DNA from: a bacterium
GTDB lineage: Bacteria > 4484-113 > JAFGCY01
Direction of reading: 5' to 3'
Length of the DNA stretch: 64,000 nt
Assembly: GCA_020849855.1 (NCBI GenBank)
Contig: JADZFO010000011.1
Coordinates: forward strand, 7,318 to 71,317
Shown here: one piece after another, positions 2,152 to 42,037 of the stretch
How positions within the stretch are numbered: position 1 is the first letter of the stretch
How the letters are laid out: every line of letters begins with the position of its first letter
Notes under the pieces: model-generated
Seen by the model: only the letters and a program-made list of their open reading frames with translations
Told to the model about the DNA's origin: nothing
The model's database searches: none
Program-made: the position numbers and the translations under genes

Positions 2152-3584
2152 GCCGGCGGTTGCGGCGGCGGCGCAGCTTCGGCTGAGCCCCGGGCCTGCC
2201 GGCGCCACCAGAGGTTCAGGCACTGCAGGCGCTTGCCGTTGCCAAAGGGGTCGACCAGCTGCAGGGGCAGCTCAGGCACGATGTGGCCTTCGATCTGAAT
2301 CCGGCCGCCGATCCAGTTGTTCTGCAGGCGCTCCAGGGCCAGCTGCAGGTGGCTCTCCTCAAACTCCTCGAAGGGCACAACCAGCAGGCGGGCCCGGTCC
2401 ACCTCGTCCTGCACAAAGATGAACTCGCGCTTTGGCATGGCGCGCAGCGCTTCGGCCACGCAGAGGCCATGCAGGGTGGAGCCGTCGGCAAAGCGGATGT
2501 AGTCCACCACCCGGCCGTCGAGGCTCTCCAGCCGCGGGAAGGGCCGGCCGCAGGCGCAGGGCGGACCGTCCAGCGGCGGCAGGACCACGCGGTCTTCGAT
2601 GTTGTAGCGGATCAGCGGCATCAGGCGCTTGTTCAGGCTGGTCAGCAGCAGCTGGCCGGAGCCATGCGGCGCGATGGAGCCGTCGTCCAGCAGCACCTCG
2701 GGATAAAGGTTGCAGGTGAAGAGGTGCCAGTTGCCCTGCTCGCACTGCGCCGCGATGCCGCCGCACTCGCGGCCGCCGTAGCGCTGGCGCAGCGGGGCGT
2801 CGAAGGCCTGCTGGATCTGCTCGGCCGAGAAGGGGTCAAGCTGCTCGGCGGTGGGGATGACCTTGCGCGCCGGGAGAGGCGGCAGATCAAGAGCACGGCA
2901 GAACTGCGCGAAGGAGCGCAGGTTGTTGACATAGCCCATCACGCGGGCCGGCTGGCGCAGCAGTATATCGGCGTGGTAGGCAGCGCTTTTTTCGCTGCTC
3001 AGCATGTAGCAGGGATAGACCGCCTCGCGGCGCAGCCAGTAGCGCAGCTTTTTGCGTATCTCGTGGATGCCGCCGCTGCGCAGGTCGCTGGCGCCCCAGA
3101 GGTAGCCCGTGCCGTCGAAGAGGCCGATGGGCGCCTCGCCGGGCCGGCCGGGCATGCACTCGCCATACCAGCCGGTGGCCAGACGCCAGGCCTGCTCCTC
3201 GCGGTCGTGCAGCACGCGCAGGGCCTGTCCGCTGCTGCCGCTGGTGGAGACCACGCCGGAGCCGCGGCGGTCCGCCGCGCTCGACTGCATCTGGTGGAAG
3301 TTCAGGTGGATCTGCTGCTTGCTGAGGACCGGGTAGTCCTCAAGTGTGCGCCGGCCCTGCTGGCTGAAGAAGGGCACAGTGCGGGCCGCGTATTCGAGGG
3401 CGGCCCCAAGGCGCTGCTGCACCGCGGCCCTGTATTCATGCGGGCTGAGCCGGGCCAGGCCCTCAAGCTCGCGCAGCCGCGCCAGGGCCGGCACACCCCG
3501 GCTGTTGTAATAGTTCTGAAGCAGTGATTCCCGCAGCAAGGCGCTCATTCTATGGGAGTCGGGCCTGAGCTGATGAGCTTCCAA
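2091..3584 (-). CDS. Phenylacetate-CoA ligase-like (PaaK/CapK-type) adenylate-forming enzyme
   Basis: TSGSSGQAL P-loop, RYGGRECG, PLIRYNIEDR and LDGRVVD motifs. Start may be the ATG at 3548. Confidence 0.82.
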   Translation of the reverse strand: MEAHQLRPDSHRMSALLRESLLQNYYNSRGVPALARLRELEGLARLSPHEYRAAVQQRLGAALEYAARTVPFFSQQGRRTLEDYPVLSKQQIHLNFHQMQSSAADRRGSGVVSTSGSSGQALRVLHDREEQAWRLATGWYGECMPGRPGEAPIGLFDGTGYLWGASDLRSGGIHEIRKKLRYWLRREAVYPCYMLSSEKSAAYHADILLRQPARVMGYVNNLRSFAQFCRALDLPPLPARKVIPTAEQLDPFSAEQIQQAFDAPLRQRYGGRECGGIAAQCEQGNWHLFTCNLYPEVLLDDGSIAPHGSGQLLLTSLNKRLMPLIRYNIEDRVVLPPLDGPPCACGRPFPRLESLDGRVVDYIRFADGSTLHGLCVAEALRAMPKREFIFVQDEVDRARLLVVPFEEFEESHLQLALERLQNNWIGGRIQIEGHIVPELPLQLVDPFGNGKRLQCLNLWWRRQARGSAEAAPPPQPPAQAGLTSTAPSQASCSDSPA

Positions 3585-3697: not shown

Positions 3698-4213
3698 ATG
3701 TTTCATACCTTCGAGGAGTTCATCACGGATTACCGCTTTGAGTCCGAGACCACAAAGAAGGTCCTGGAGGCGCTGAGTGATGAATCGCTGGGCCAGCGCA
3801 AGGGCATCGGCGAGACCACCCTGGGCGATATCGCCTGGCATATCGCCACCACCCACGGCATGATGCTGAACCAGGCCGGCTTCCACGTGCCGGCGAACGA
3901 CAAGTGGATGCTGCCGCAGGGCACCAGCGCCGCCGAGGTGCTGGCCGAGTATGAGCGCGCCGTCACGGCGACCATTGAGGAAGCCGCGGGCAAGAGCCCT
4001 GAAGAGCTGAAGAAGGTTTACAGCATGTGGGGCATGGCGGAGTGGCCGGTGCACGTCACCCTGGCCATGCTGATCAGCCATGAGGTACACCACCGCGGCC
4101 AGCTTTCTGTTCTGATGCGCCAGGCCGGCCTGAAGGTGCCCAGCATCTATGGCCCCAACTATGAAGAGACCCAGGAATGGATCGCGAAGAACGCGGCAGA
4201 AGGCGGCGCGTAG
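3698..4213 (+). CDS. DinB/YfiT family protein
   Basis: Metal-binding His pattern WHIATT...HEVHHRGQLSVLMRQAG. ATG at 3698 preferred over 3632 (purine-rich GGGGCAGGAAG upstream). Confidence 0.88.
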   Translation: MFHTFEEFITDYRFESETTKKVLEALSDESLGQRKGIGETTLGDIAWHIATTHGMMLNQAGFHVPANDKWMLPQGTSAAEVLAEYERAVTATIEEAAGKSPEELKKVYSMWGMAEWPVHVTLAMLISHEVHHRGQLSVLMRQAGLKVPSIYGPNYEETQEWIAKNAAEGGA

Positions 4214-4458: not shown

Positions 4459-6411
4459 TTACCAGCCGCGTCCGCCGCCACCGCCGCCGCCGCCGCCACT
4501 GAAGCCGCCACCCCCGCCTCCGCTGAAGCTGGAGCCGGACCAGGAGCGGCTGGAGCCGCCCGAGCTGCCGCCTGAGGACACCACCACTGGCGCCGAGGCG
4601 ATGCTGAGCTTGCGGTTGAAGTTCTGGCTGAGGTTGCTCACCAGCTGGTCATAACGGTAGCTGCGGCGGTAAGGGTTGTAGTACCAGTCGATGCCGCTGT
4701 AGTAGCCGGGCTGCTCCTGCAGCACGGCGCCCGGGGGCGGCGGCGGAGCCTTCTGCGCGGCGGTCTTGAGCTGCTGCTCAAGCTGCTGGGCCCAGGCGGC
4801 CTGCAGGTCCATGGCCAGGGCATAGGGCAGGAACTGGCTGAAGAGTGCCGGGCTCATTGGCGCACTGGAAGGCATCAGGCTTTCGATGGGCTTGCCGCCT
4901 GACAGGGCCTCACGCAGGGGCTCGAACTGGTCCAGGATCATGCGGCCCTGGGAGCTGTAGCGCGGCACCAGGCGGGCATAGGCCCAGTTAAGGGCGACAA
5001 GCGCCACGACCGCGACGAAGGGCGCAGGGGTCAGGAAGAGCACGCTGGAGCCAATGCCGAACATCAGCACCCCGCAGGAGAGCAGGCAGCTCAGACAGGC
5101 GCCGGTCTGCTTCCAGGCCTCGTTGCTGTGGAAGTAGCCCTTCTCGTAGCGCTTCTTCAGCGCGGCCTGCAGCGCGTTGGTGGCCTTGATGAAGTGGGTG
5201 CTGTTGCTGCTGAGCTTGCGGCTGCTGGCGCCGGAGAAGACTTCCTCGTGCAGGCGCTTCTCTTCCGCCGGCAGCGAGTCATCCGCGCTCTTCAGGCGCT
5301 GCAGGGAATAGTCCCCTTCCTTGTCCTGGTTGATCCGCAGATAGCCCTTGGCGGCCAGGGAGACGACGGCGGTGGTGAAACACATGCCGTCGTACTTCAT
5401 CTGGCGGATATAGCGCAGCGCCGCAGGGCTGACATCCTGGGGCGGCTGGCGCAGCAGGGCCGGGTCAGCCCGGGCGGGGTCAATGCCAACTGAGAGCCAG
5501 GAGACCAGGAAAAGCAGGGCCAGCACGCCAACCGCGCCGTAGCAGATGTACTCCAGCAGGCGCTTGTCGCGGCGGCGCTGTTCCTCCTGACGCAGCTGGT
5601 ACTGGCGGTCCCACTCCGCCTGCTCGGCCAGGGCCCGGGCCTCCGCGTCGCGCAGTTCCTGCTCATAGGCCAGCTGCTCGGCGGTGGGCGGCGCGATGAT
5701 TCCGCTGGGCCACTGGAAGACCACCGTCAGGCCCTCGCCGGCTTCAAAGCGGCGCGTGGAGTTGATCAGGCCCTCGCCGGGACGGCTGATCGCAGCGCGG
5801 TAATCCTGGCCCTGCGAGCCGCGAAAGCCGGTATAGCCTTCAATATGCAGCTGCTCCGCCGGCACCGGCTGGGGCAGCATGATGCGGGCCGAAGCCGAGA
5901 GGATCGGCAGCTGCCACTCATTGCCGGTGATGTTGAAGTAGAGCTCATCGTAGCCCTGCAGGAAGGAGATCTGCCGGTTTGTGCTGTAGCGCAGCAGATA
6001 GCTGTGCTCACCGGCGCCGATGAAGACATCCGGGCTGCCGATGTAGATGTCCACAATTTCGCCCAGGGGTTCTTCGCGATAGGGCTCCGGGCGGCCGTCG
6101 CGCTGCACTTCAAGCAGCTCAAAGCCGACCGGGTGCCACTTGCCATCGGGCTCGGTATAGCGCAGCGGGAAGCTGCGCACGATGCCGCGCTGGATCTGCT
6201 CGCCTTCTGAGACCAGACGGATGCGCTCTGTAACCACAAGGCGGCCGTCTGGCGCGATCTGGATCTCGGAATCAAAGGAGGTGATCCGCTCCTCAGCCCC
6301 GGCGCGCAGCGGCGCAAAGAGCAGCAGCGCCGGGAGCAGGGCCAGCAGGCAGAAGAGCACGGGCCGAAGGGCGAGTGCGGGGCGCGGCGATTGCAGGGCT
6401 GCTTGCAGCAT
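4459..6411 (-). CDS. DUF2207 family predicted membrane protein
   Basis: Signal peptide, ERITSFDSEIQI, YDELYFNITGNEW, several TM helices, LPYALAMD and a Gly/Ser-rich tail ending GGGGRGW. Confidence 0.9.
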   Translation of the reverse strand: MLQAALQSPRPALALRPVLFCLLALLPALLLFAPLRAGAEERITSFDSEIQIAPDGRLVVTERIRLVSEGEQIQRGIVRSFPLRYTEPDGKWHPVGFELLEVQRDGRPEPYREEPLGEIVDIYIGSPDVFIGAGEHSYLLRYSTNRQISFLQGYDELYFNITGNEWQLPILSASARIMLPQPVPAEQLHIEGYTGFRGSQGQDYRAAISRPGEGLINSTRRFEAGEGLTVVFQWPSGIIAPPTAEQLAYEQELRDAEARALAEQAEWDRQYQLRQEEQRRRDKRLLEYICYGAVGVLALLFLVSWLSVGIDPARADPALLRQPPQDVSPAALRYIRQMKYDGMCFTTAVVSLAAKGYLRINQDKEGDYSLQRLKSADDSLPAEEKRLHEEVFSGASSRKLSSNSTHFIKATNALQAALKKRYEKGYFHSNEAWKQTGACLSCLLSCGVLMFGIGSSVLFLTPAPFVAVVALVALNWAYARLVPRYSSQGRMILDQFEPLREALSGGKPIESLMPSSAPMSPALFSQFLPYALAMDLQAAWAQQLEQQLKTAAQKAPPPPPGAVLQEQPGYYSGIDWYYNPYRRSYRYDQLVSNLSQNFNRKLSIASAPVVVSSGGSSGGSSRSWSGSSFSGGGGGGFSGGGGGGGGGRGW

Positions 6412-14714: not shown

Positions 14715-14953
14715 GTTGCGCTCCGGTCCAGATCTGAACAGGTGGATTCTAACCCGCTGCAATGCGGATTCACGAAAGCGCAGCGGAATCGCGGCACTTG
14801 AGGCCTGCAAAAGCCGGCGTGAACGCAGCGCAGGCTTGAAACGACTTAAAGTACAATGGCGGACTCAGGCGGAATATGCGGATAAGGGGACTTCGGGGCA
14901 ACGCGCCGCTGCGTGGCTGCGCCCTGAACACAGCTGGGCGGGCGCTGCGGACC

Positions 14954-17842
14954 ATGGGGTGCGCGGCATTTTCACGCGGCATCGCCCTGCTGCTGGCGGC
15001 CCTGCTGGGCCTGCCTCTGCTGAGCCTGCCCGCCGCGGCTGTGGAATGGCAGAACTACCTTGAGGATGACTTCGAATCCAGCGAAAGCATGTTCTATACC
15101 GGCCAGGCCGGTGAAGCCCAGTACAGCATTGATGAGGAAGAAGGCCGTTATGTGATCGACGGCCTCGAGAGCGGCTCGGACAGCCTGTCGGCCCTGACCG
15201 ACAGCATGTATTACTACTACGTACAGTCCGAGTGCCAGGTGCTGGAGAGCACCGCCGGCGATCTGGCCTTCTGCGGCATCGTCTTCCACTACCACAAGCT
15301 GGGTGACGGCCGCCTGGCCTACTATGTCTTTTATACCTATGGCGACGGCTACTACGGCGCCAAGCGCGTCATCGGCACGGATGTTGAGATCCTGCTGCCG
15401 CTGAAGAAGACCGACCTGTTCAACCCTGACGGTTACAGCAACACCCTGGCGGTGGACGCCCAGGGCACGCGCTTCAACCTATACATCAACGGCGACTATG
15501 TTGATGGTTTCACCGACATGCAGGTTGACGGCGGCGGCTTTGGCTTCTATGTCTCCAAGAACAGCCGGGGCTCCTTCGACAACTTTAAGGTCAAGACCGA
15601 GAAGCGCGGCGGCTCCAAGCGCGATGAGGATGAACCCTCGGTGGCCGACGACGGCGCCGAGGACGAAGGCCCGGGCCGCCCTGCGCGCGGCTACTTCGGC
15701 GGCTATGAGCCACCGGAGATTCCCAAAGACCCCGAGCGCCCGCTGTACCCCTGGGAAGTCGGCTACGACAAGAGCTACCGCAAGAAAGTGCAGGACGCAA
15801 AGGAGCGCGAGGGCGAAGATGGCCGGGGCGCAGACCCTGACGACGCTGATTACATCCCGGACGAGAGCCCGATAAAGCCGGTGCCCGAGGATGAAGACAG
15901 CGCGGAGCCGGACGAAGAAGACAAGGACAAGAGCGAGAAGCGCAGCGCCCGGCCCGAGAAGAAGCCCCGCAAAGAAACGGACGAGAAGCGCAGCGACAGC
16001 CCGGACAAGCCCGCGGGCCGCGAGCTGCCGGAGTCTGGCGATCCCCCTGCCGAGCAGGATGAGGAGCCTTCCGGCCGCAAGGCCAAAGGCGGGCGTCTGA
16101 AGCCCACCGACGGCTTCCGGGAAACCGGCGGGCCGCTGGCCCCGGCCGAGGGGATGCCCGAGAGCACCCGGCAGGTGCGCCCGCCCCAGAAGGGTGACAA
16201 GGCCCCCGCCGAGCTGCAGGATGAGCAGGCGCAGGACGAGGAAACGCAGAGCGATGAAGACGCAGGCCTGGAGCTGCCCTCGGAGTCAGGCGACAGCGCT
16301 GCGGACGGGGATGCAGAGGCGGGCGCAGAGGACGAGGCCAGCCTGAGCAGTCCGCTGGCTGCCGAGGGTGGCCAGCCGATGGTGCGCCCTGAGCCGCATG
16401 CCGGCGGGGAAGCCGAGGGGGCGGAGTCGCCGGATAAAAGTGCTTCGGATGCTGAGGCCGCTGGCGAAGATGCAGGCGCGGCTGAGGCTGAGCCTACGGA
16501 TGAAGCAGAGCAGCAGCTGGAGATGAAGCCGGAGCTGCCCAGCCGCGGCAAGCCCAAGGGCAAGGATAAAGGCAAGCCCAAGGGCAAGCAGAAGGGCCGC
16601 GCGAAGGAAAAGGGCAGCGCGGGCAAGGGCGCCGGAGACAAGCAGGCTGCTGAGCCGGAGAAGACCAGCCAGGCGGCCGACGACAGCGCAAAGGCTGAAG
16701 AAACAGCGCCTGCGGACAAGAACGAAAAACCCGCAGAGAACGCTTCCCGCCAGAGCCGCCAGGGTCTGAAGACCGGCGGCGACGACTGGGACAGTGGCAA
16801 TGCCAGGACAGTGCCCGCTGAGCAACTGCGCCCGAAGCAGAAGCAGCAGGACAAGAAGCAGGAAGAGCCGGTTGACGAGAACGCCGGCGAGTCCCGCCCG
16901 CCCGCGGCGGATGAAGAGCCCGCAAAGCAGGCTGATGCAGCACAGCCGGATGAAGCAGGCAGCGAAGAGACTGCGCTGCAGGAACTGGCGGAAGCTCAGC
17001 CGGAGGCGGATGCCGAGGGCCTCGACGGCTTTGCCGGACAGCAACAGGACCTGGGCCTGCCGGATAGCAGCGGCGAAGGCAGCAACAGCCTGGAAACTGA
17101 TTCAGCTTCTGAAAGTGAGATGCCCGCGGATGAGGCAGCCCTGCTGACAGATGAAGCGGCGGACGCTGGCGGGACGGAAAGCGCTGGCGCGGATGACCCG
17201 CTGCAGAAGCAGGCGCGGCCGCCGGCGCGGGAGCTGCCCGGCGAGCAGCCGGAGCTGGAGAGCGGCGCCATGAAGCACTCCCTGCTGCTGGATTATGTGA
17301 ATGTCTCGACCGTGCAGGACGACTTCAGCCAGCAGCGCTGGCCGGTCGCCGATAACGACAGCTCGGCCTATCGCTACAGCGACGGCGCCTATGAGCTGGA
17401 TAACCTGGCGGCGCAGACCATGGCGATCTCCTACCAGCAGGACAGCTTTGTGGACTGCGAGCTGAGCTGCGATGTGAGCTTCCTGGGCGGCGAGACCGCC
17501 GTGGGCTATGGCCTGGCCGGGCGCTTCATGCTTGAGGAAGGCGCGGTCAGCTATTACGCGCTGTTTGTCTCCTCCTCCGGCGAAGTGCTGTTGCTGAAGG
17601 TGCTGCGCGGCGAGGAAATCGTGCTCAGCGACTGGCAGCCCTGCCCTGCCCTGCTGCAGGGGGAGGCCAACCGCCTGAGCCTGGAGCTGGTGGGCAACAC
17701 GATCCGCGCCAGTGTGAACGGCGAGCTGGCCCTGCAGGTTGAGGACGGGGATATCTCCGTCGGCGGCTATGCCCTGCTGGCCGGTCCCGGAGTGGCGGCG
17801 AGCTATGACAACCTGCTGCTGCGTGGCGTGCGGGCGCAGTAG
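14954..17842 (+). CDS. Large secreted protein: two DUF1080/ConA-like beta-sandwich domains joined by a ~600-aa acidic disordered linker
   Basis: Signal LLLAALLGLPLLSLPAAA; terminal domains share DDF...Y...G.Y...YY.F...G...N.L.....G......+NG...D....GG...+DN. Start could be 14876. Confidence 0.75.
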   Translation: MGCAAFSRGIALLLAALLGLPLLSLPAAAVEWQNYLEDDFESSESMFYTGQAGEAQYSIDEEEGRYVIDGLESGSDSLSALTDSMYYYYVQSECQVLESTAGDLAFCGIVFHYHKLGDGRLAYYVFYTYGDGYYGAKRVIGTDVEILLPLKKTDLFNPDGYSNTLAVDAQGTRFNLYINGDYVDGFTDMQVDGGGFGFYVSKNSRGSFDNFKVKTEKRGGSKRDEDEPSVADDGAEDEGPGRPARGYFGGYEPPEIPKDPERPLYPWEVGYDKSYRKKVQDAKEREGEDGRGADPDDADYIPDESPIKPVPEDEDSAEPDEEDKDKSEKRSARPEKKPRKETDEKRSDSPDKPAGRELPESGDPPAEQDEEPSGRKAKGGRLKPTDGFRETGGPLAPAEGMPESTRQVRPPQKGDKAPAELQDEQAQDEETQSDEDAGLELPSESGDSAADGDAEAGAEDEASLSSPLAAEGGQPMVRPEPHAGGEAEGAESPDKSASDAEAAGEDAGAAEAEPTDEAEQQLEMKPELPSRGKPKGKDKGKPKGKQKGRAKEKGSAGKGAGDKQAAEPEKTSQAADDSAKAEETAPADKNEKPAENASRQSRQGLKTGGDDWDSGNARTVPAEQLRPKQKQQDKKQEEPVDENAGESRPPAADEEPAKQADAAQPDEAGSEETALQELAEAQPEADAEGLDGFAGQQQDLGLPDSSGEGSNSLETDSASESEMPADEAALLTDEAADAGGTESAGADDPLQKQARPPARELPGEQPELESGAMKHSLLLDYVNVSTVQDDFSQQRWPVADNDSSAYRYSDGAYELDNLAAQTMAISYQQDSFVDCELSCDVSFLGGETAVGYGLAGRFMLEEGAVSYYALFVSSSGEVLLLKVLRGEEIVLSDWQPCPALLQGEANRLSLELVGNTIRASVNGELALQVEDGDISVGGYALLAGPGVAASYDNLLLRGVRAQ

Positions 17843-17902
17843 CAGCCCGCGCGGGAGCTGAAGCCGAGCTGGTAAACAGACAGTGAGGACGCAGAGTTCC
17901 GC

Positions 17903-18115
17903 TCAGGCTTCGCTGCCGGGATGCTTATCCTTGCGGCTGTAGCTGCCCTTACCCTTCTTGGCCTTATGCGGCTTGTCTGTGCCCACGTTCACGCTGAACC
18001 AGGCCCAGTCAGGGCGGCGCGTGTGCTGGGCTGCTATCTGCTCAGCGCTCGGAGCGGCGCCTCCGCTCCGGCTGAGGCTCTGCAGACGCTTCTTCCTGCT
18101 CTTGCTGCGTGACAT
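17903..18115 (-). CDS. Alternative ribosome-rescue factor A (ArfA)-like small basic protein
   Basis: KAKKGKGSYSRKDKH against E. coli ArfA KNKKGKGSYMRKGKH; Lys/Arg-rich, about 70 aa. TATAAA upstream favours ATG 18115 over 18124. Confidence 0.72.
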   Translation of the reverse strand: MSRSKSRKKRLQSLSRSGGAAPSAEQIAAQHTRRPDWAWFSVNVGTDKPHKAKKGKGSYSRKDKHPGSEA

Positions 18116-18210
18116 CCGGGGCATTTATACCCGCTGCGGCTGATCTTTCGCGTCTGTCTGCGCTCCGCCTGTCATAATCCCCCGCCCGGCGAACCGGGGG
18201 AGGAACTGCA

Positions 18211-18486
18211 ATGATCAGGATCACGGCCATTCAGATGGAAGGCGACACCGACCACGAGAAGATCGAACGGCTGCGCTGGGTGTCGATGGGCTCAACCGCC
18301 ACGGGCGAGAACACCCTGGATGAGATTGTCGAGTTCATTGAGAACGGTGAGCGCGTTGTGGTCACCGAGGGCAAGGATGTGATCCCCGTGCGGGTGGTGC
18401 TGGGCCAGACCAAGCCTTACCTGCGCACCTTCTGGAAGGGCGAGTACCGCGACCACCTGCTGGATTTGCCGGTCTTCTTCGACTGA
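18211..18486 (+). CDS. DUF3892 family protein
   Basis: MIRITAI......HE.I..LRW......YLRT...G...D.LL.LP pattern; SD GGAGGA. Confidence 0.8.
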   Translation: MIRITAIQMEGDTDHEKIERLRWVSMGSTATGENTLDEIVEFIENGERVVVTEGKDVIPVRVVLGQTKPYLRTFWKGEYRDHLLDLPVFFD

Positions 18487-18570: not shown

Positions 18571-18676
18571 GCGGGTCAGAACACTGTCAGCGCCGCAACC
18601 TCCCGCTTAGTGCTGCTGCCTTCCGGCCCTGACACGGTTCGCAGTGTTTGCCCGCAACAGGCCCGACCCACGAGGC
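18567..18676 (-). ncRNA. ffs: Signal recognition particle RNA (4.5S, small bacterial type)
   Basis: Minus strand has GAACCGUGUCAGGGCCGGAAGGCAGCAGCAC (helix-8 core). 5' CCUCGUGGGUCGG pairs fully with 3' CUGACCCGCGGGG. Upstream TAAAAT -10 and downstream U-tract. Confidence 0.93.
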
Positions 18677-21609: not shown

Positions 21610-24600
21610 GTGGCGCGGCTTGGGCTGATAACTGGTCCGGCGGGTTCCGGCAAGACAGAGCTGGTGCTCAATGAGGCGGCCCAGGCATCCCTGGACCAGC
21701 CTCTGGGCCCGCCGCTGCTGATCATTGTCCCGGAGCAGCAGGGCGTGCAGACCGAGCGAGCCGCCCTGCAGCGCATCGCGCGCCTGCGCGGCAGCGCTGA
21801 CGGGACTGCTGCCAGCTCGAGGATCCGCGTGCTCAGCCTCAGCCGGCTGGCGCGATTGCTGGAGGAGCGCAGTGGCCGGCACAGCCAGCCCCTGAGCGAG
21901 CTGCAGCGCCGCCTGCTGGTCTGGCGCCTGCTGGAGCCTGGCCGAGAGCGCGAGGCCCGTGCGCAGGTCTATTCGGACCTGCTGGCAGAGCTGGCCCTGT
22001 GGCAGACCCGCCCGGAAGAGCTGGAACAGTGCAGCGCGCAGCTTTCGCTGCAGGCCGCTGCGGCCGCCGAGCTGCCCCTGCGCCAGAAGCTGGAGCAGCT
22101 TTCCGCCAAGCTGAGCACCCTGGCTGCGCTGCAGCGGCGCTATATCGCTGCCTGCGAGGCCCAGGGCCTGGATTTCCGGCCGGCCCCGGCGCGGATACCC
22201 GAACTGCTGAGTGAGGAGAACTGGCCCGGGCTGAGCCGCACGCGGGTCTGGGTCGACGGTTTTGCCGGCTTCACGCCGGCTGAGGAAAGCGCTCTGCAGG
22301 CCCTGCTGAAACACTGCGAGAGCGTCAGCGCCACAGTGCTGCTGGACCCGCGGCGGCGCTACGGGCCGCTGGAGTCGGATACCCGCGACTGGTACGCGCC
22401 CGGGCGAGCCCTGCTGGAGCGCTGGCAGCTGCTGGCCCAGCGCAGCGCGGCGGCGCAGACACAGCTGCTTGAGCTGCCCCAGCCGCAGGCCTGGCCCCCG
22501 GGGCACCCCCTGGGGCAGCTGGCGCTGGAGCTGCCGCAGGCTGGCATGCGCATCGCCGCGGCGGAGCAGGATGAGATCCTGGCCGTGGCCTGCGCGGACG
22601 AACGCCAGGAGGTTGAAGCGGCGGCCCAGCATATCCGCGAGCTGCTGCTGCCGCCGGAGTCCGGCGGACGGGGCATCCCGGCGGGGCGGATATCAGTGGT
22701 GCTGCGCAGTGTGGAGCACTATGCCCCGCTGATCCGCAACATCTTTCACGACTATGAGATTCCCTTCTTTCTGGACCAGCGCCGCAGCCTGGCACACCAT
22801 CCCGCGGTGGAGCTGCTGCGCAGCGGCCTGCGTCTGGCACTGGGCCTGGCCGGCCAGGAGGACATAGCGGCGCTGCTGCGCTGCGGCCTGCTGCCGGCGC
22901 CGGAGGATGAAAGCCTGCGCGCGGCGGCCGACGCCTTGCTGGCCTATGCGCGGCGACACGGCCTGCGACCGGGGCTGTGGCTCAGCGACAGCGACTGGCG
23001 CTTCAGCGGCGGCCTGCTGGGCTCCGAGGAGAGCCTTGACGATGAGCGCCTGAGACAGCGCGAGGAAAGCCTGGCGCGGCTGAACGCCTGGCGCCGGAAG
23101 ATCCTGGCGCCGATAGCCGCGCTCTCACGGCGGCTGAGGGGGCTGGAGCGGCCGCGGCTTCGGGAGCTGCTGGCCTGCGCCTGGGAAGAGCTCTTCAGCG
23201 CGGCGACGGCGCAGCAGATGGAAAGCTGGGCCCTGCAGGCGCAGCAGCGCTCGGCTGGCAGCGGCCGTGAAGCCTCCTACATGGGGGACAAGGCGCAGCT
23301 GCACCGGGCGGTATGGCCTGCGCTGGCCGCGCTGCTTGACGCGCTGGATGCCGTCGCCGGCGAAGAGCGCATGGAACCGGCGGAGGTTTGCGCCTGGCTG
23401 GAGGCCGGCCTGGCGGCGCTGGATACCGGCTTCCCCCCGCCTCTGCTGGACACAGTGCTGGTGACGCAGATTGACCGCGGCCGCCACGGGAGCGTGGATG
23501 CGACCCTGCTGCTGGGACTGAGCGAGGACCTGTGGCCGCCGGCCCAGGCGGAGTCCGCGCTGTTCTCCGACCTTGAGCGCGAGCTGATCAACGCGGGCCC
23601 GGAGGGCGGCGGCGACAGCGATATGCAGCTGCTGGCGGCCGGTGCGCGCCAGCAGGCCCAGCGCGAACCCTGGTTCTTCCTGGTAGCCATCACCCGCCCG
23701 GCCCGGCACCTGTATCTCAGCCGGCCGGCATCCTCAGCGGATGGCCAGCTGCGCCCGGCATCGGCATATCTGCGCGCGCTGCTGGACAGCATCGGCCTGC
23801 AGGAGCGCGGGGCAGAGCAGCTTTGCGCCGAGCGCCTGGAACGCGGCAGCCTGTATCTGCCGCCGGCGGAACTGGCCGCGCGCCTGGCCGGCGCGGAGCC
23901 CGGGCTGTTATCCGCGCTGCCGCAGCTTGAGCGGCTGCTGCTGGCGCAGGCGCCGGACGCGCTGAGCGCGGTGCGCTGGTCGCAGGCCGAGTATCAGCGC
24001 CGCGGCCAGCCCCTGCCGCTGGACGCGCCGACACTGGAGCTGCTCTTCCAGCGCACAGGCCAGACCCGCCTGCGGGCCAGTGCCTCCCAGCTTGAGGCCT
24101 TCGCGCTCTGCCCCTTCCGGCACTACAGCCGCTACCTGCTGCGCCTCAGTGAGGAACAGCCGCCGCTATTTGACGCCCGCACCATGGGCTCCTTCTACCA
24201 CAGCCTCTTTGAGGGCCTCGTGCGGCGTCTGCAGGTGAGCGCGGCACAGGAAAGCTGGGCGGCCATCGACAGCGAGCGGATTGAAGCCGAGGCCGCCGAA
24301 GTGCTGAGCGAGCTTGGCGCGGTGCTGAAACTTGAAACGGACTATCAGCGGATTGACTTCCTGCTGCTGCGCGCGCGCGCCATCCTGGCCCAGCATGCGC
24401 AGCTCCTGGCCGCGATGCTGGCCGAGGGCCGTGTGCCCCTGGCGGCGGAGCTGGCCTTTGGCGAGCAGCCCGGCAGTCAGCTGCCGCCCCTGCGCCTGGA
24501 CTTCCCCGGCGGCGAGCTGCTGCTCTCGGGCAAGATTGACCGCCTGGACCGCGACAGTCAGGGCCAGGCCAGTGTGGTGGACTACAAACTGGGGCAGCGC

Positions 24601-25131
24601 AGCTTCAAGGACATGCAGCTGCTGGCCGGCGCCCAGATCCAGATGTATGTGTATCTGCTGGCCCTGGCCCAGGGGGAGGCCGGCCGCCGGCCCGCCCAGC
24701 TTGAGCTGGAGCTGCGGCCCCACAGCGCCTGCTATCAGAGTATCGAGCCGAGCTGGGCCGATTCAGGGCTGAAGCTGAACGCCAGCCAGCGTGAGCTGGC
24801 CTCGGCTGAGGATGGCGAGTGGGAAGCAGCATCGCGCGCCGGCGCGGCGCAGAAGCTGCGTCCCAGCCTGGAGCTGGTGCGGCGCCTGCTGAGCGGCATT
24901 GCCGCCGATATCGCTTCCGGCTCGCTGGCGGTCAGCCCGCTACGCGACGGGCCGCAGTGGCGGGCCTGCAGCAGCTGCGACTTCCGCAGCGTCTGCCGTT
25001 TCGACCCGCTGAGCCAGGGCCAGTACCGCAGCACGGAGACTGTCGCCAGGCGCAACCTGCAGCGCAGCGGCCTGAATCCCCGGGAGCTGGCCCGCGAGGG
25101 CTTAGCCCGCCCGCGGGGAGGCGGCCGATGA
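21610..25131 (+). CDS. addB: ATP-dependent helicase/nuclease subunit B (AddB/RexB-like)
   Basis: GPAGSGKT, SASQLEAFALCPF, GKIDRLD..VVDYK nuclease motif, Fe-S ligands C...CSSCDFRSVC. Confidence 0.9.
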   Translation: MARLGLITGPAGSGKTELVLNEAAQASLDQPLGPPLLIIVPEQQGVQTERAALQRIARLRGSADGTAASSRIRVLSLSRLARLLEERSGRHSQPLSELQRRLLVWRLLEPGREREARAQVYSDLLAELALWQTRPEELEQCSAQLSLQAAAAAELPLRQKLEQLSAKLSTLAALQRRYIAACEAQGLDFRPAPARIPELLSEENWPGLSRTRVWVDGFAGFTPAEESALQALLKHCESVSATVLLDPRRRYGPLESDTRDWYAPGRALLERWQLLAQRSAAAQTQLLELPQPQAWPPGHPLGQLALELPQAGMRIAAAEQDEILAVACADERQEVEAAAQHIRELLLPPESGGRGIPAGRISVVLRSVEHYAPLIRNIFHDYEIPFFLDQRRSLAHHPAVELLRSGLRLALGLAGQEDIAALLRCGLLPAPEDESLRAAADALLAYARRHGLRPGLWLSDSDWRFSGGLLGSEESLDDERLRQREESLARLNAWRRKILAPIAALSRRLRGLERPRLRELLACAWEELFSAATAQQMESWALQAQQRSAGSGREASYMGDKAQLHRAVWPALAALLDALDAVAGEERMEPAEVCAWLEAGLAALDTGFPPPLLDTVLVTQIDRGRHGSVDATLLLGLSEDLWPPAQAESALFSDLERELINAGPEGGGDSDMQLLAAGARQQAQREPWFFLVAITRPARHLYLSRPASSADGQLRPASAYLRALLDSIGLQERGAEQLCAERLERGSLYLPPAELAARLAGAEPGLLSALPQLERLLLAQAPDALSAVRWSQAEYQRRGQPLPLDAPTLELLFQRTGQTRLRASASQLEAFALCPFRHYSRYLLRLSEEQPPLFDARTMGSFYHSLFEGLVRRLQVSAAQESWAAIDSERIEAEAAEVLSELGAVLKLETDYQRIDFLLLRARAILAQHAQLLAAMLAEGRVPLAAELAFGEQPGSQLPPLRLDFPGGELLLSGKIDRLDRDSQGQASVVDYKLGQRSFKDMQLLAGAQIQMYVYLLALAQGEAGRRPAQLELELRPHSACYQSIEPSWADSGLKLNASQRELASAEDGEWEAASRAGAAQKLRPSLELVRRLLSGIAADIASGSLAVSPLRDGPQWRACSSCDFRSVCRFDPLSQGQYRSTETVARRNLQRSGLNPRELAREGLARPRGGGR

Positions 25132-28100
25132 GCGGGCGGCGCTGGACAGCGGCACAGCTTGAGGCGATCAACGCGCGGGACTGCGAGCTGGCGGTGAGCG
25201 CCGCGGCAGGCTCGGGCAAGACATCCGTACTTGTGGAGCGCGTGCTGCGCTGCGCCCTGGGCCAGCAGCTTGACGCGCAGGGGCTGGCCCGTGACAGCGC
25301 CGCGCTGGCGATTCCGCTCGACCGTCTGCTGATTGCGACCTTCACTAACGCCGCGGCGGCTGAGCTGCGCTCGCGCCTGCATGAGCAGCTGGGCCGTGAG
25401 CTGCAGCGCCGGGTGGAGGCCGGGCAGCCGACCCGCCTGCTGCGCGAGCAGCTGGCGCTGCTGCCCCTGGCCTCCATCGGCACACTGCATGGCTTCTGCC
25501 TGGAGCTGATCCGGCGCTATGGGCATGAGCAGGGACTGGCCTCCAGCCGCGTGCTGAGCGAGCATGAGAGCCGCCTGCTGCTGCATGAGCAGGCTTCGCG
25601 CTTTCTGGACGAGAAACTGGGCAGCGGTCAGGAGGAGCTGCTGCGCCTGGGCCTTGACTGGGGCGGGCAGGACGGCGTGGGGGCCGAGGACCTGTCGCGC
25701 AGCAGCGCCGGCCGCGGCCTGCGCCCGCTGCTGCTGATGGTCTATGAGCTGCGGCGCAGCCTGCCGGACCACGAGGCCTGGTACAGCCAGCACCTGGGCT
25801 GGGCTGACCTTGACCCGCAGAACTGTGACCCTGGCCATCCCCTGCTGGCGGCGCAGATAGAAGAGCTGCGGGCCTGGCGCGACAGGTGGATCGCCAGTGA
25901 TGCGGCCTTTGGCCTGAGCCTTGGCAGCGAGCTGCCGGATGCCGGCTTCCTGCAGACCATTGCGGCGCGGCGCCTGGCCCTGCAGGACCTGCGCCTTGAT
26001 CTGCACTGGGACAAGCTGGGTATCCATCTGGACGAGTCCCTGCGCAAGACCAGGCTGGACCTGCCACACAAACCGGCACTGACCGAGGGCTATCGCCGGG
26101 ACATCGACAAGGAGAGTCCCTGGTACGAGCGGATTCCGCAGTACAACTCGGCCTTCGCGGAAGAGATAAAGGACTGGCAGGAGCACTTCAGCCGCCGACC
26201 CTTTGCCCAGGTGGCGGCGGACGAGAACCATGTGCGCGGGCAGATCAGCCTGCTGTGGTCACTGGCCGCGGACTTTGAGCAGCGCATCAGCGCCTACAAG
26301 CGCGAGCGCGGCTGGCTGGATTACTCGGACATGGAGCGCGGCGCGCTGGAGCTGCTTAGCGCGCGGGACGAGGCCGGCCGGCCGCTGCGCGATGAATCGG
26401 GCGGCCTGCGGCCCAGTTCAGTTGCGCTGGAGCTGCGCAGCCGCTATCTGGCAGTGCTGGTGGATGAGTACCAGGACACAAGCCCGCTGCAGGCGGCGCT
26501 GCTGGAGCTGGTCTGTCCGGAGCTGCCCCTGCCGGATGGCAGCGGCAGCTTCCGCCCGCGCTTTGTGGTGGGCGACGTGAAGCAGAGCATTTACTCCTTC
26601 CGCCTGGCCGAGCCGGAGCTTTTCATCCGCCTGCAGGCCCGGCTGCGCAGCGCGGAAATGGCCGGGCAGCGCCTGGTGTTGCTGCGCGAGAACTTCCGCT
26701 CCCGCCGGGGGGTGGTGGCGGGGATCAACCGCCTGCTGGGCGGCCTGATGAGCCTGGAGCTTGGCGGCGAGGATTATGCAGAGGCGGCGCTGATTTACAG
26801 CGCCGGCTATGAGGCCTTTGAAAGCGAGGCGCAGACTGCGGCGCGGCAGGCCGAGCCGGCACTGCGGATCAGTCTGGTGCCTGAGCCGGAGCCGAGCCCT
26901 TCTGAAGACGCGCTGCCTGAGCGCGAGAGCAGCATGGAAGAGCCAGCCACTGAAGAAGAAGGCCCAGGCGGCGGCGAGGATGAAGACAGCCCTGAGCTGC
27001 AGCGCAGCGTCTACCGCGCGGTGGCCCGGCGGCTGCTTGAGCTGAAGGCCGAGGCCGACGGCGGCCACCTGACCGTGCTGGACCACGCCATCGGGGCGCT
27101 GCGTCCGGCGCAGTGGGGCGACATGGTGATCCTGCTGCGTTCCACCCGCGGGCGGGTTGAGACACTGCGCGAGGAACTGGAGCGCGCCGGCGTGCCCTGC
27201 CTGGCCCTGGGCCGCAGCGGCTTTTATGAGCGGCCGGAGGTGCTTGACGCACTGAGCCTGCTGAAGGTGCTGGACAACCCGCTGCAGGACACCGCGCTGG
27301 CCGCACTGCTGCGCGGCCCGGCCCTGGGCCTCAGCGCACAGGAGCTGCTGCAGGTCGCGCGGCCGGACATCTTCGCCGCCCAGGATGAGGGCGCCGATGC
27401 GGGTCCGCTGCCAACCAGCCGCGAGCCCCTCTGGCTGCGGCTGCGCTACAGCGCGGCGCGACACCCTGACGGCGGCCTGCGGGCCCGCCTGCTGCTGTTC
27501 ATCGCGCGGCTGGAACACTGGCGCGACCTGGCCCGCGATGAGCCGCTGAACCTGCTGCTGCACCGCCTTTACCGCGAAGCCGGGCTGCTGGCCGCGGCGG
27601 CGGCGCAGGACCGCGCGCAGCAGCGCCGGGCCAACCTGGAGGAGCTGCTGCGCCTGGCCGGGGAGTTCAGCTCCTTCGAGCGCCAGGGCATCAGCCGCTT
27701 CCTGCAGTTCATTGAATCATCGCGCCGGGCTGCCGGCGATACCGGCGAGGCCGTGCTGGGCGAGTCCGGCCAGCAGCAGGTGCGGATCCTGACCGTGCAC
27801 CAGTCCAAGGGCCTGGAGTTCCCCATCGTGCTGCTGCCGGACCTGCAGCGCCGCTTCAACCAGCAGGACCTGGGCCGCGACCTGCTGTGGCATCCCCGCG
27901 CCGGTCTGGGCGGCCGCTTCTATGACTATCAGGCCCGGCCGCCGCGGCGGGCCGTGACCCTGCAGCTGGAACAGGTGCGGCGGGCCAAGCGCGCGGACCT
28001 GCTCAGCGAAGAGCTGCGCCTGCTGTATGTGGCCCTGACCCGCGCCCGTGAACGCCTGGAACTGATCAGCGGCCTGCCGCGCAGCTTCAAGGCGGAGAAG

Positions 28101-29144
28101 GCCGTGGCCGCCAGGCCGCAGGAGGCCCGCAGCTGGCTGGACTGGCTGGCCTTGCAGCTGGGCCCGCAGCTGCTGCAGTGCCTGGAAGAGGGCAGCGCGG
28201 AGCTGGCCGAGGCGCAGGCGCGAATCAGCCTGCAGCTAATGCTGCCGGGCGGAGCGGCGGCGGCGGAGCATGACGGAGGCGCGGCGCAGGAGCAGGACCC
28301 GCTGGCGGCCGCGCTGCTGCGCGACCAGGGCCGCGGGATGCTGAGGCTGCTGGAGGCGGCAGGAGCGCAGTCGGCCCAGCAGCGCCTGCCGGGCAAACTG
28401 AGCGTCAGCCACATCGCGCACCAGCCGCCTGCGCAGTCTGGCCCGGATGCCCCGGACAGCGAGTTTGTGCTGGAGGGCTTTGAGCAGCCAGCCATTGAGC
28501 TGCGCGATTACCAGCCCCCGCGGCTGCTGTCCAGCAGCGAAGCTGACACAGAAGAAGCTGTCCTTGCCGGGCCGGATCCGCGCGCTCTTGGTACGGCCAC
28601 ACACCGCCTGTTGCAGGAGCTGGACCCGGCGGCGCCGGGCTTTGCGCGCTATGCGGTGCGCGAAGAGCTGGCCGGGCTGCGCGATGCCCTGCTGCAGCGC
28701 GGGCTGCTGGATCCGCTGGCGGCCTCTGCTTTGAGGCTGGACCGCATCGCCGCGCTGGTCACGGAGCTGCAGCCGCGGGCCCGGGCGCTGCTGGCCGAGG
28801 GTGGCCAGGCCTGGCGCGAGCTGCCCATCGGCCTTTTGGTGCCCGAGGCCGAGCTGGCCCGCCTGCCGGCTTTCAGCGCGGGCCAGGCCGCAGACAGCGC
28901 ATATGGCAGCGGCAGTGTGTATGTCCAGGGCACCATCGACCTGCTGCTGGCGGGTCGCACAGAAGCGCTGATAGTGGACTACAAGACCGACCGCGGCGCA
29001 TCTGCAGAGACCCTGCTTGCGCGCTACAGCCAGCAGCTTGAGTGGTACGCGCGGGCTGTGCGGCTGCTTCTGCCCTCGCACAGTGTGCGCTGGGCGATAT
29101 ATGGCCTCGACCGCGCCGGCTTGGTGCTGCCGGATATAGCCTGA
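25128..29144 (+). CDS. addA: ATP-dependent helicase/nuclease subunit A (AddA/RexA-like)
   Basis: WTAAQ..AI, SAAAGSGKT, TFTNAAAAEL, LVDEYQDTS, VGDVKQSIYSFR, TVHQSKGLEF, EELRLLYVALTRA, QGTIDLL..VDYKTD. ATGA overlap with addB fixes the start at 25128. Confidence 0.95.
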   Translation: MSGRRWTAAQLEAINARDCELAVSAAAGSGKTSVLVERVLRCALGQQLDAQGLARDSAALAIPLDRLLIATFTNAAAAELRSRLHEQLGRELQRRVEAGQPTRLLREQLALLPLASIGTLHGFCLELIRRYGHEQGLASSRVLSEHESRLLLHEQASRFLDEKLGSGQEELLRLGLDWGGQDGVGAEDLSRSSAGRGLRPLLLMVYELRRSLPDHEAWYSQHLGWADLDPQNCDPGHPLLAAQIEELRAWRDRWIASDAAFGLSLGSELPDAGFLQTIAARRLALQDLRLDLHWDKLGIHLDESLRKTRLDLPHKPALTEGYRRDIDKESPWYERIPQYNSAFAEEIKDWQEHFSRRPFAQVAADENHVRGQISLLWSLAADFEQRISAYKRERGWLDYSDMERGALELLSARDEAGRPLRDESGGLRPSSVALELRSRYLAVLVDEYQDTSPLQAALLELVCPELPLPDGSGSFRPRFVVGDVKQSIYSFRLAEPELFIRLQARLRSAEMAGQRLVLLRENFRSRRGVVAGINRLLGGLMSLELGGEDYAEAALIYSAGYEAFESEAQTAARQAEPALRISLVPEPEPSPSEDALPERESSMEEPATEEEGPGGGEDEDSPELQRSVYRAVARRLLELKAEADGGHLTVLDHAIGALRPAQWGDMVILLRSTRGRVETLREELERAGVPCLALGRSGFYERPEVLDALSLLKVLDNPLQDTALAALLRGPALGLSAQELLQVARPDIFAAQDEGADAGPLPTSREPLWLRLRYSAARHPDGGLRARLLLFIARLEHWRDLARDEPLNLLLHRLYREAGLLAAAAAQDRAQQRRANLEELLRLAGEFSSFERQGISRFLQFIESSRRAAGDTGEAVLGESGQQQVRILTVHQSKGLEFPIVLLPDLQRRFNQQDLGRDLLWHPRAGLGGRFYDYQARPPRRAVTLQLEQVRRAKRADLLSEELRLLYVALTRARERLELISGLPRSFKAEKAVAARPQEARSWLDWLALQLGPQLLQCLEEGSAELAEAQARISLQLMLPGGAAAAEHDGGAAQEQDPLAAALLRDQGRGMLRLLEAAGAQSAQQRLPGKLSVSHIAHQPPAQSGPDAPDSEFVLEGFEQPAIELRDYQPPRLLSSSEADTEEAVLAGPDPRALGTATHRLLQELDPAAPGFARYAVREELAGLRDALLQRGLLDPLAASALRLDRIAALVTELQPRARALLAEGGQAWRELPIGLLVPEAELARLPAFSAGQAADSAYGSGSVYVQGTIDLLLAGRTEALIVDYKTDRGASAETLLARYSQQLEWYARAVRLLLPSHSVRWAIYGLDRAGLVLPDIA

Positions 29145-41089: not shown

Positions 41090-42037
41090 CTAGTCCCAGT
41101 ACAGCTCAACCATGAGCGGAAAGTGGTCGCTAAGGTAGCCCAGCGTGGCCTGCCTGCCCTTGCCGACGCGCCAGCTGTCACGGATCAGCTCGCTGCTGAT
41201 CAGGCTGAAGTCAGGGCTGCTCAGGACATAGTCGATCCGCCTACTGCCGGCCTCGCCTGTCCAGTTGTGGAAGGTCCCGTTGGCAGACTCGTCCATGGGC
41301 AGACGTTCGTTGCTGCTGCTGTAGGTGAAGTTGCCCAGGGCGTGGCAGTCCTGGAGCTGGCTGAGCAGGGCCTGCATGGGAGCACTGTCCGGCGTGCAGT
41401 TGAAATCGCCGGTCAGCAGCACCGGCATCTCCGCGCCGTTGGCCATAAAGCTCTCGCCGATGCGCTGCAGAAGCAGCTTCGCGCTTTCCAGGCGCGCCTG
41501 CTCGCCGACGTGGTCGAAGTGCGCGTTGTAAAGCCAGAAGCTCCTGGCGTTCAGCCTGTCGTGGAGATGGACCCAGGAGCAGATTCGGGGCAGGGCGGCA
41601 TCCCAGGCAGTCTCGCCCAGCTTTCCCTCGGGCGCAAGCCCAAAGGAGCCGGAGTCGATCAGCTCAAAACGATCCGCGCGCCAGAGGATGGCGCACATTT
41701 CTCCGCCGCCGTCCTTCTCCCGGCCCAGGGCATAAGCAGCATGGCCCGGCAACGCCGCCTTGATCTGTTCGAGCTGGAAATCCAGGCACTCCTGCAGGCC
41801 GATCAGATCCGGATCACGCTGCTTCAGCATCGCCAGCACATGCTCGCGCCGCCTGTCCCAGCGGTTCGGCCCGTCATCGGCAGTCCCGTAACGGATGTTG
41901 AAGCTCATTACCCGCAGAGGATCAATGGCCTTGGCTTCAGCCCCGGCGGGAGAGGGCAGGCAGAGCGCAAGGCAGGCCGTGGCCAGCAGACCGGCGGAGC
42001 CAAGAAGAATGCTAAAGAGCTGCAGGCCGGGCTTCAT
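41090..42037 (-). CDS. Secreted endonuclease/exonuclease/phosphatase (EEP) family protein
   Basis: VMSFNIRY, DLIGLQE, NAHFDH, LTGDFN, RIDYV, SDHFP; N-terminal signal peptide. Confidence 0.92.
   Translation of the reverse strand: MKPGLQLFSILLGSAGLLATACLALCLPSPAGAEAKAIDPLRVMSFNIRYGTADDGPNRWDRRREHVLAMLKQRDPDLIGLQECLDFQLEQIKAALPGHAAYALGREKDGGGEMCAILWRADRFELIDSGSFGLAPEGKLGETAWDAALPRICSWVHLHDRLNARSFWLYNAHFDHVGEQARLESAKLLLQRIGESFMANGAEMPVLLTGDFNCTPDSAPMQALLSQLQDCHALGNFTYSSSNERLPMDESANGTFHNWTGEAGSRRIDYVLSSPDFSLISSELIRDSWRVGKGRQATLGYLSDHFPLMVELYWD

Follow-up and report, generated by a model that had tools for sequence, protein, structure and literature searches.

The question raised by this locus is whether a bacterium of Planctomycetota-like descent encodes a ribosome rescue factor related to ArfA. 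The window, by which we mean the whole 64,000-nucleotide stretch of DNA that was analyzed, contains a 73-codon ATG-to-TGA open reading frame on the minus strand at 17903-18124, the translation of which, MPRMSRSKSRKKRLQSLSRSGGAAPSAEQIAAQHTRRPDWAWFSVNVGTDKPHKAKKGKGSYSRKDKHPGSEA, is a basic protein. A first-pass annotation had pointed to an ArfA-type motif near its C-terminus and to an N-terminus loosely resembling that of BrfA, and had proposed a hybrid or new class of release-factor-dependent rescue factor in a genome with AddAB and dprA-topA. The frame is present, as are the motif KAKKGKGSYSRKDKH at 17921-17965 (minus strand) and the N-terminal string that was quoted, and the genes named as context were found at 21610-29144 (AddB/AddA), 48757-51198 (topA) and 51277-52485 (dprA).

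In published surveys ArfA is confined to the gamma-proteobacteria and part of the beta-proteobacteria (PMC8012679). The same limits are given for it in reviews and in a 2024 survey of 15,259 genomes, which restrict BrfA to Bacillus and treat ArfA, BrfA and ArfT as independent inventions which cannot be found by sequence. A tabulation of 211 PVC genomes lists arfA in none, smpB in 208 and arfB in 107 (PMC11633108 Table 1); because nucleotide HMMs were used, that survey would miss a gene such as the one described here. The genome closest to the window is a Planctomycetales-labelled MAG, which places the host outside the beta/gamma-proteobacterial range of ArfA, as had been supposed.

The coding sequence and its ArfA-type C-terminus

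The ORF lister had started the frame at the ATG at 18124 (73 aa). When the window was aligned with four related loci the conserved start was the second ATG, at 18115, and the first ATG, which overlaps a conserved GGGTATAAA box, was missing in two of the four relatives. The arfA-like coding sequence is taken here as 17903-18115 on the minus strand, 70 codons followed by a TGA at 17903-17905, and all residue numbers refer to this 70-aa form.

A word-indexed search of 5.8 billion proteins returned seven close relatives of 64-75 aa with 65-83% identity, and a relaxed profile search added P0008 and P0129-P0132 (E 1e-16 to 1e-10); 11 relatives have an invariant motif core. The pattern R-x-DWAWF-x-x-N-x-G-T-[DS]-x-x-H-[KR]-x-KKGKGSY-x-R-[KR]-x-KH is nearly invariant among them. 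The tight clade around the window protein is small; only two sequences at E<=1e-3 were obtained when the seven-sequence profile was run against 1.84 billion representatives in a deep HMM search, a collection so large that a protein as short as canonical ArfA does not become significant in it. When the window was compared codon by codon with three close-clade loci, dN/dS values were 0.10-0.17 at dS 1.0-1.5, and values of 0.22-0.27 were obtained among those three loci themselves. Strong purifying selection acts on the arfA-like frame, and this disposes of the reading in which the ORF is spurious and its motif a chance product of a GC-rich genome. Long spurious ORFs are indeed common in such genomes, but this frame has an invariant core in 11 relatives and dN/dS of 0.10-0.27 at dS of about 1, and together with the Pfam match described below these conservation data already refute the spurious reading, the chance of which we take to be practically nil.

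Within the GTDB-based collection the sole species-level genome with the gene is a MAG named 'uncultured Planctomycetales bacterium' (GCA_964512635.1), and near-identical DNA was found in wastewater, sludge, bioreactor and aquaculture metagenomes. In this MAG the neighbouring genes are syntenic with those of the window and encode proteins of 53-80% identity.

Judged by sequence comparison, homology to ArfA is well supported and is confined to the C-terminal third of the protein (about 25 residues). The C-terminal ArfA-type module, referred to here as the plug, comprises residues 46-65 (TDKPHKAKKGKGSYSRKDKH, 17921-17980, minus strand) as identified by Pfam, hhalign and ArfA chains of the PDB, and holds both the KKGKGSY core (17939-17959) and the KH motif. 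Residues 51-65 (KAKKGKGSYSRKDKH) are identical to residues 31-45 of E. coli ArfA at 12 of 15 positions; the E. coli segment quoted in the first-pass annotation is correct, the PDB ArfA chains reading VEKNKKGKGSYMRKGKHG. With the PF03889 profile the score was 26.7 bits (E 3.8e-6), the gathering threshold being 25.5, with an alignment restricted to residues 50-65 and to positions 28-43 of the 44 in the profile, and all 20 sequences of the extended alignment matched PF03889 at E<=0.01.

For profile-profile comparison a search with E. coli ArfA was unsuited as the source of a diverse profile, the 120 matches listed being all enterobacterial with at least 80% identity, and a canonical ArfA profile was therefore built from the Vibrio/Psychromonas/Photobacterium-type matches of the relaxed profile search (18 sequences from Escherichia, Citrobacter, Cronobacter, Vibrio, Psychromonas, Photobacterium and Amphritea). 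Against this profile hhalign returned a probability of 96.7% and an E value of 4e-10 over 25 columns, pairing residues 46-70 with residues 26-50 of E. coli ArfA. When the clade profile was run against PDB chains only ArfA chains were matched (E 0.003-0.02), over the plug. Residues H50, K53-Y59, R61 and K64 are invariant or nearly so among the relatives. On the strength of Pfam, profile-profile comparison and this invariance, the resemblance to ArfA reflects true homology and not chance. An NCBIfam scan gave no match, but E. coli and Vibrio ArfA were unmatched as well, indicating that the library has no ArfA model.

The KH-containing C-terminal part of ArfA loops into the mRNA entry channel of the ribosome (PMC8012679), and the KH motif and the basic residues which published structures place in the channel (PMC8012679) are conserved in the window protein. 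The shared segment K-x-KKGKGSY-x-RK-x-KH, the passing of the Pfam threshold and a small, basic, probably disordered chain are likenesses to ArfA (E. coli YhdL; PF03889), and a common role in sensing an empty mRNA entry channel may be supposed for both.

ArfA was the sole Pfam match of the window protein at E<=10, with no GGQ/ArfB domain and no KGG repeat. Identity with ArfB was rejected since the 70-aa protein has no GGQ-containing RF-1 catalytic domain, and identity with ArfT or the KGG-repeat family was rejected since it has neither a KGG-type charged helix repeat nor a non-ArfA Pfam match at that threshold. ArfT of Francisella and the KGG-repeat family would resemble it in being small release-factor-dependent rescue factors with a charged ribosome-binding segment; ArfT works with RF1 or RF2, so that release-factor specificity can vary in such factors, and is unrelated in sequence to the window protein. 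The C-terminal tails of SmpB and ArfB are likewise basic and probe the vacant mRNA channel, but these are helical parts of larger folded proteins and have no sequence relationship to the window protein, which lacks a GGQ domain.

The upstream half of the protein

RF2 is recruited and activated by a helix of ArfA at residues 15-24 (with A18), by F25 and by a strand at Q27-E30 (PMC8012679). None of these elements could be recognized in the window protein, in which the Pfam and hhalign alignments stop at residue 46, the positions opposite Q27-E30 read D-K-P/A-H, often with proline, and no equivalent of ArfA residues 1-25 is recognizable. As the RF2-contacting residues of ArfA are not conserved, recruitment of a release factor by this protein is an extrapolation, and as the RF2-specific contacts (F25 and its neighbours) are among them, RF1, RF2 or both may be used. 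The protein also differs from ArfA in having His in place of Glu three residues before KKGKG, and in having about seven extra residues between the plug and the hydrophobic block (DWAWFSVNV here, DPLFRQRV in ArfA).

In place of the RF2-recruiting part there is a conserved, clade-specific middle block at residues 31-45 (HTRRPDWAWFSVNVG, 17981-18025, minus strand). It is aromatic and hydrophobic with an alternating, strand-like pattern, and is invariant in the seven closest relatives; R.DWAWF..N.G is retained in P0008 and P0129-P0131. Neither Pfam nor hhalign aligned the block with canonical ArfA. We consider it a putative surface for interaction with a release factor or the decoding centre.

The N-terminal basic segment at residues 1-15 (MSRSKSRKKRLQSLS, 18071-18115, minus strand) carries a conserved M.R.K..KKR pattern. 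AlphaFold2, run on the 20-sequence alignment, gave a model of low confidence (pLDDT 61, pTM 0.19) which was used for secondary structure only; it contained helices at residues 4-15 (pLDDT about 58) and 24-30, with coil elsewhere. A predicted N-terminal helix followed by a largely unstructured remainder is what would be expected of a factor that folds on the ribosome, and the 70-residue protein is probably disordered when free. The N-terminal basic alpha-helix of BrfA binds h44/H71.

The transcript and the locus

The ArfA message of E. coli breaks off within the ORF owing to an RNase III hairpin, and the BrfA message of B. subtilis owing to an intragenic terminator, and as a result the product is normally destroyed through tmRNA (PMC8012679). 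The window gene differs from that of ArfA in having no hydrophobic C-terminal tail, no RNase III hairpin and no non-stop mRNA. As the first-pass annotation had read it, the ORF ends five residues past KH, at an ordinary TGA and with no destabilizing hydrophobic tail, and the C-termini of relatives are also short and hydrophilic (PGSEA, PKVEP, PGAEQ, GGGE). The 3' half of the gene with its flank folded no better than shuffled sequences (z = +1.0), no conserved hairpin or covariation was found by RNAalifold on four loci or by single folds of five loci, and no terminator-like site was found by the terminator scan within 17903-18124. In the alignment of related loci the sequence past the stop codon was not conserved. 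Both an E. coli-type hairpin and a BrfA-type terminator were rejected on the basis of the single folds, RNAalifold and the terminator scan. With an ordinary stop codon and no tail, hairpin or terminator, the factor would not be made from a non-stop mRNA and would not be gated by tmRNA in the known way.

Upstream of the conserved start lies a GGTATAAA box at 18124-18131 (minus strand), a candidate promoter -10-like element with the same spacing in relatives. The TATAAA of the GGGTATAAA box ends 8 nt before the ATG at 18115 in the window, L011, L001 and L006, with variable flanking bases; the GGTATAAA sequence occurs twice in the 64 kb window, where 0.1 matches would be expected. Between TATAAA and the ATG a Shine-Dalgarno sequence would not fit, and this arrangement points to an mRNA that is probably leaderless or nearly so, transcribed from its own TATAAA promoter. 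Public RNA runs yielded SRP-RNA fragments and two stray low-depth contigs only.

The gene for SRP RNA, ffs (18571-18668, minus strand; Rfam RF00169, 54 bits), lies upstream of the arfA-like gene on the same strand, and its terminator-like hairpin and T-run were found in the window at 18577-18565. In six of the seven loci with enough upstream DNA, namely the window, L001 (P0004), L008 (P0006), L005 (P0008), L013 (P0130) and L042 (P0129), ffs is found upstream on the same strand, the exception being L012 (P0132). This linkage argues for orthology of the genes and for their long residence in the lineage. In the sister clade represented by L013 and L042 only 52-56 nt, with a weak T-run at most, separate ffs from the arfA-like gene, and the arfA-like stop overlaps the start of maf; owing to the short gap, the weak T-run and the maf overlap, transcription from the ffs promoter could plausibly run on into an arfA-like-maf unit, and the arfA-like transcript of this clade probably arises by read-through from ffs just upstream.

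In the clade of the window a DUF3892 gene (18211-18486, plus strand; Pfam PF13031, 26 bits) has been inserted between ffs and the arfA-like gene; it is oriented opposite to both and divergent from the latter. It has a CATAAT box of its own at 18173-18178 and a GGAGG at 18199-18203, 7 nt before its ATG. This gene adjoins the arfA-like gene in the closest clade only and is absent from the P0008, P0129, P0130 and P0132 loci; as a neighbour in one clade it was rejected as a functional partner. Other genes near the locus encode Dxs, PKD-domain proteins and a 988-aa low-complexity protein convergent to the arfA-like gene, and elsewhere in the window there are genes for a RibD_C protein, an M60-like peptidase, AddB and AddA, with topA and dprA further off.

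Wider relatives and proposed function

With the threshold at E<=10, 252 proteins were obtained in the relaxed profile search. Among the 117 motif-bearing sequences that were fetched, the ranking of which was biased toward His by the query, 76 have His three residues before KKGKG (median length 54 aa, a median of 6 residues past KH) and 21 have the canonical Glu (median length 69 aa). By its sequence the window protein belongs to a large, uncharacterized set of short proteins that match PF03889 and follow the pattern NxGxxxH[KR]xKKGKGSYxRKxKH. The motif-bearing sequences show many types of head, among them IKIRSVFTSGVNLGGxxH, FTTSEIGRGxGIH, NIHEHLQxVNRGAGxH, VVSFNTGTRVH and a type with hydrophobic LCFLF tails. 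Several short members carry the IMG label 'stalled ribosome alternative rescue factor ArfA', and a 41-aa protein of a Parcubacteria MAG (P0175) is labelled ArfA by NCBI. The short His-type proteins, which include P0175, a 44-aa family with FTSGVNLGGxxHKxKKGKGSY and phrog_37108, share with the window protein the pattern N/G-x-G-x(3-4)-H-[KR]-x-KKGKGSY-x-RK-x-K[HY], a short hydrophilic tail past KH and an ordinary stop codon. The window clade differs from them in a G...H spacer longer by one residue, in the unique RPDWAWF block, in a basic, Ala-rich N-terminal extension of 30 residues, and in being chromosomal and linked to ffs.

These findings bear on the proposal of a hybrid or new class. What is new is that the clade has an N-terminal and middle part of its own and lacks the regulation by non-stop mRNA; the terms class and hybrid are overstated, since a good many short ArfA-like proteins of this kind are present in databases, some of them, in IMG and NCBI, under the name ArfA. 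With the Pfam threshold passed and the plug present, and with the RF2-binding region and regulatory architecture of ArfA lacking, we would class the protein as a variant inside the ArfA superfamily.

Many of the relatives appear to be viral. The KKGKGSY pattern was found in at least 589 stretches of IMG/VR contigs, the 44-aa family was located on at least 12 viral contigs (24-185 kb), at one locus of which the neighbouring genes gave PHROG matches, virion structural proteins among them, and the window protein itself matches phrog_37108, a family of unknown function, at E 5.5e-5. One viral contig of 10 kb encodes ...RDPSWQWLRALLKQVIPSKKGKGSYQRKPKH beside a 557-aa ORF which, by eye only, is primase-helicase-like. 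A tblastn search of GenBank phages with the window protein and the 44-aa family gave no match with the low-complexity filter on, and a scan of metagenome contigs was flooded by the KKGKGSY pattern and returned one canonical-type ArfA. These viral relatives would favour a reading of the window gene as phage or mobile in origin, serving phage-host conflict and not host housekeeping. We find this scarcely credible, because the window is chromosomal with an even GC content (65-66%), the chromosomal surroundings of the gene and its relatives, with ffs, AddAB and housekeeping genes, are syntenic and conserved, and no phage genes, att sites or integrase were seen nearby.

The reading we prefer, which we would place just on the likely side, is that the protein is a divergent member of the ArfA superfamily that senses an empty mRNA channel and uses an N-terminal module unlike that of ArfA to recruit a release factor. 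The plug (residues about 46-65, ...H-K-A-KKGKGSYSRKDKH) would enter the mRNA entry channel of the 30S subunit only when this is empty and so mark non-stop ribosomes. The RF2-recruiting part of ArfA would be replaced by the clade-specific block RRPDWAWFSVNVGTD, preceded by the basic N-terminal helix. At the decoding centre the aromatic, strand-like block (residues 35-44) could dock a class-I release factor (RF2, RF1 or both) by strand addition (beta-augmentation), aromatic contacts and contacts to the switch loop, with the basic N-terminal helix adding contacts to rRNA, and the GGQ of the release factor would then hydrolyse the peptidyl-tRNA. Expression would be from the TATAAA promoter of the gene itself, leaderless or nearly so, with no tmRNA gating of a known type. 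Against this reading it may be said that an unregulated ArfA-like factor might compete with tmRNA, unlike the wiring of known systems.

The main rival to the rescue-factor reading is a protein that binds the channel as ArfA does but with another output, such as a hibernation-like protection or silencing of idle 30S or 70S particles, a block of re-initiation, or a hand-over to ArfB or Pth. The plug module is all that is common to ArfA, the RF2-binding half being different, and an ordinary stop codon without tmRNA-linked regulation would suit a constitutive ribosome ligand, while arfB, as tabulated above, is present in about half of PVC genomes. We nevertheless think this unlikely, since every characterized protein with the motif is a release-factor-dependent rescue factor and the strongly conserved aromatic block beside the plug resembles a surface at the decoding centre that binds a protein or rRNA specifically, not a passive plug. 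Less likely still is an ordinary ArfA orthologue, with E. coli-like recruitment of RF2, a truncated non-stop mRNA, control by tmRNA and a sequence that has merely drifted. The Pfam ArfA gathering score was passed, and some ArfA proteins of the Vibrio/Psychromonas type have basic N-terminal extensions (KKRLKSL against KKRLQSL) which BLAST aligns over about 90% of the length, but what is shared at the N-terminus amounts to a short basic patch of low complexity, the alignments by Pfam and hhalign end at the plug leaving equivalents of A18, F25 and Q27-E30 unrecognizable, and the hairpin, intragenic terminator and hydrophobic tail are all missing.

The fusion of a BrfA-type N-terminus to an ArfA-type C-terminus, as originally proposed, is in our view very improbable. 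BrfA (B. subtilis YqkK) is of similar size, has KH in a basic C-terminus and possibly shares an N-terminal basic helix, and release-factor-dependent rescue is a plausible common logic of the two proteins. Its elements are alpha1 at 4-17, alpha2 at 21-25, beta1 at 35-38 and a basic segment at 48-55 (PMC6881298). The order predicted for the window protein (helix 4-15, short helix 24-30, strand-like block, basic tail with KH) loosely parallels this, and the likeness of helix 4-15 to alpha1 of BrfA would be an analogy at most. The BrfA-like N-terminus itself was not upheld: the clade profile matched ArfA only and the N-terminal 50 residues matched nothing among PDB chains at E<=10, in a library expected to contain the BrfA-ribosome entry 6SZS (cited in PMC8012679). 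No sequence similarity between the two proteins could be detected, the tail of BrfA lacks KKGKGSY, BrfA is confined to the Bacillus group, and the intragenic terminator that truncates the BrfA mRNA has no counterpart in the window gene.

Returning to the reading as a divergent rescue factor, sequence comparison can find the channel-binding module of ArfA in a lineage of the PVC group, and also in hundreds of short uncharacterized proteins, including phage-encoded ones, with a different upstream half and no tmRNA-dependent non-stop-mRNA regulation. Published surveys thus seem to understate how widespread and how modular ArfA-like factors are, and genome annotation for inventories of rescue pathways in Planctomycetota is corrected. 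Such natural chimeras bear on the choice between RF1 and RF2 and their activation, on constitutive rescue factors and on interference of phages with ribosome rescue.

A broader and more tentative proposal, which we regard as doubtful at present, is that the KKGKGSY-KH plug is an ancient portable module carried on different release-factor-recruiting heads in different lineages, among them the Planctomycetota, candidate phyla and many phages. In the first of these the head (RPDWAWF..NVGTD and the basic helix) would then contact the release factor in another way than ArfA or BrfA does, and might differ in RF1/RF2 specificity, and the constitutive leaderless mRNA, tied to the SRP RNA locus, would act in parallel to trans-translation and not as a tmRNA-gated back-up. 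If this were true, the phage-borne relatives would mean that phages manipulate the rescue of stalled host ribosomes. One viral contig of 10 kb encodes ...RDPSWQWLRALLKQVIPSKKGKGSYQRKPKH beside a 557-aa ORF which, by eye only, is primase-helicase-like.

Linkage of the arfA-like gene to ffs and maf

The SRP RNA gene (ffs) was found 5' of the arfA-like gene and on the same strand in six of the seven loci having upstream DNA, with protein identity among the loci spread over about 50-60%. In the window ffs lies at 18571-18668 (-), and in the related loci it was located at 4993-5090 (L001), 121-218 (L008), 644-741 (L005), 2242-2339 (L013) and 591-688 (L042). Since the gap between ffs and the arfA-like gene is just 52-56 nt in two of these loci and contains no clear terminator, co-transcription of the two genes is suggested there. 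Within the sub-clade of related proteins P0129-P0131 the start of maf, a nucleotide pyrophosphatase gene, overlaps the arfA-like stop (L013 2392-3191, L042 745-1541 and the JGI contig of P0131), implying that ffs, the arfA-like gene and maf form one unit in this sub-clade.

Flanking regions in the window

Only within the closest clade is the arfA-like gene flanked by a conserved, divergently oriented DUF3892 gene (91 aa, 18211-18486 (+)), which appears to be an insertion separating it from ffs. The two genes diverge from a compact promoter region at 18124-18210, where a TATAAA motif (18124-18129 (-)) is found 8 nt from the arfA-like ATG, which has no Shine-Dalgarno sequence, while the DUF3892 gene is preceded by CATAAT (18173-18178 (+)) and GGAGG (18199-18203). 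The block CCGGGCGGGGGATTATGACAGGCGG of this region was retained in three of four relatives.

On the 3' side, the GC-rich near-palindrome CAGCCCGCGCGGGAGCTG (17843-17861) falls between the convergent stops of the arfA-like gene and a gene for a 988-aa protein (14876-17842 (+)), and may act as a bidirectional terminator lacking a T-run. The 988-aa protein has a signal-like N-terminus, a very long acidic/lysine-rich low-complexity stretch in the middle and weak 3-keto-disaccharide-hydrolase-like (lectin-fold) matches at both ends; its syntenic counterpart in the related MAG is a 1084-aa protein.

ArfA-like proteins on viral contigs

Viral contigs 10-185 kb long (IMG/VR loci L014-L026) also contain genes for short ArfA-like proteins. 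Loci L015-L026 carry a 44-aa FTSGVNLGGxxHKxKKGKGSY family (match at ~4001-4132) and L014 encodes a DPSWQWL...KKGKGSYQRKPKH protein (2884-3177). At least 589 stretches in IMG/VR matched the KKGKGSY pattern alone. One such short ArfA-like family is present in PHROGs as phrog_37108, labelled "unknown function", and no mention of phage-encoded ArfA-like peptides was found in the literature examined. The L014 gene is adjoined by a large ORF which, by eye, resembles a primase-helicase.

Other features of the window

ARAGORN predicted an 88-nt tRNA-Arg(CCG) at 27072-27159 (+), within the addA coding region. Because Rfam returned no tRNA there at the gathering threshold, the GC-rich coding sequence has probably given a false-positive call. 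A 460-aa protein (42034-43416 (-)) combines an N-terminal zinc-ribbon with multiple ankyrin repeats, an arrangement unusual for bacteria.
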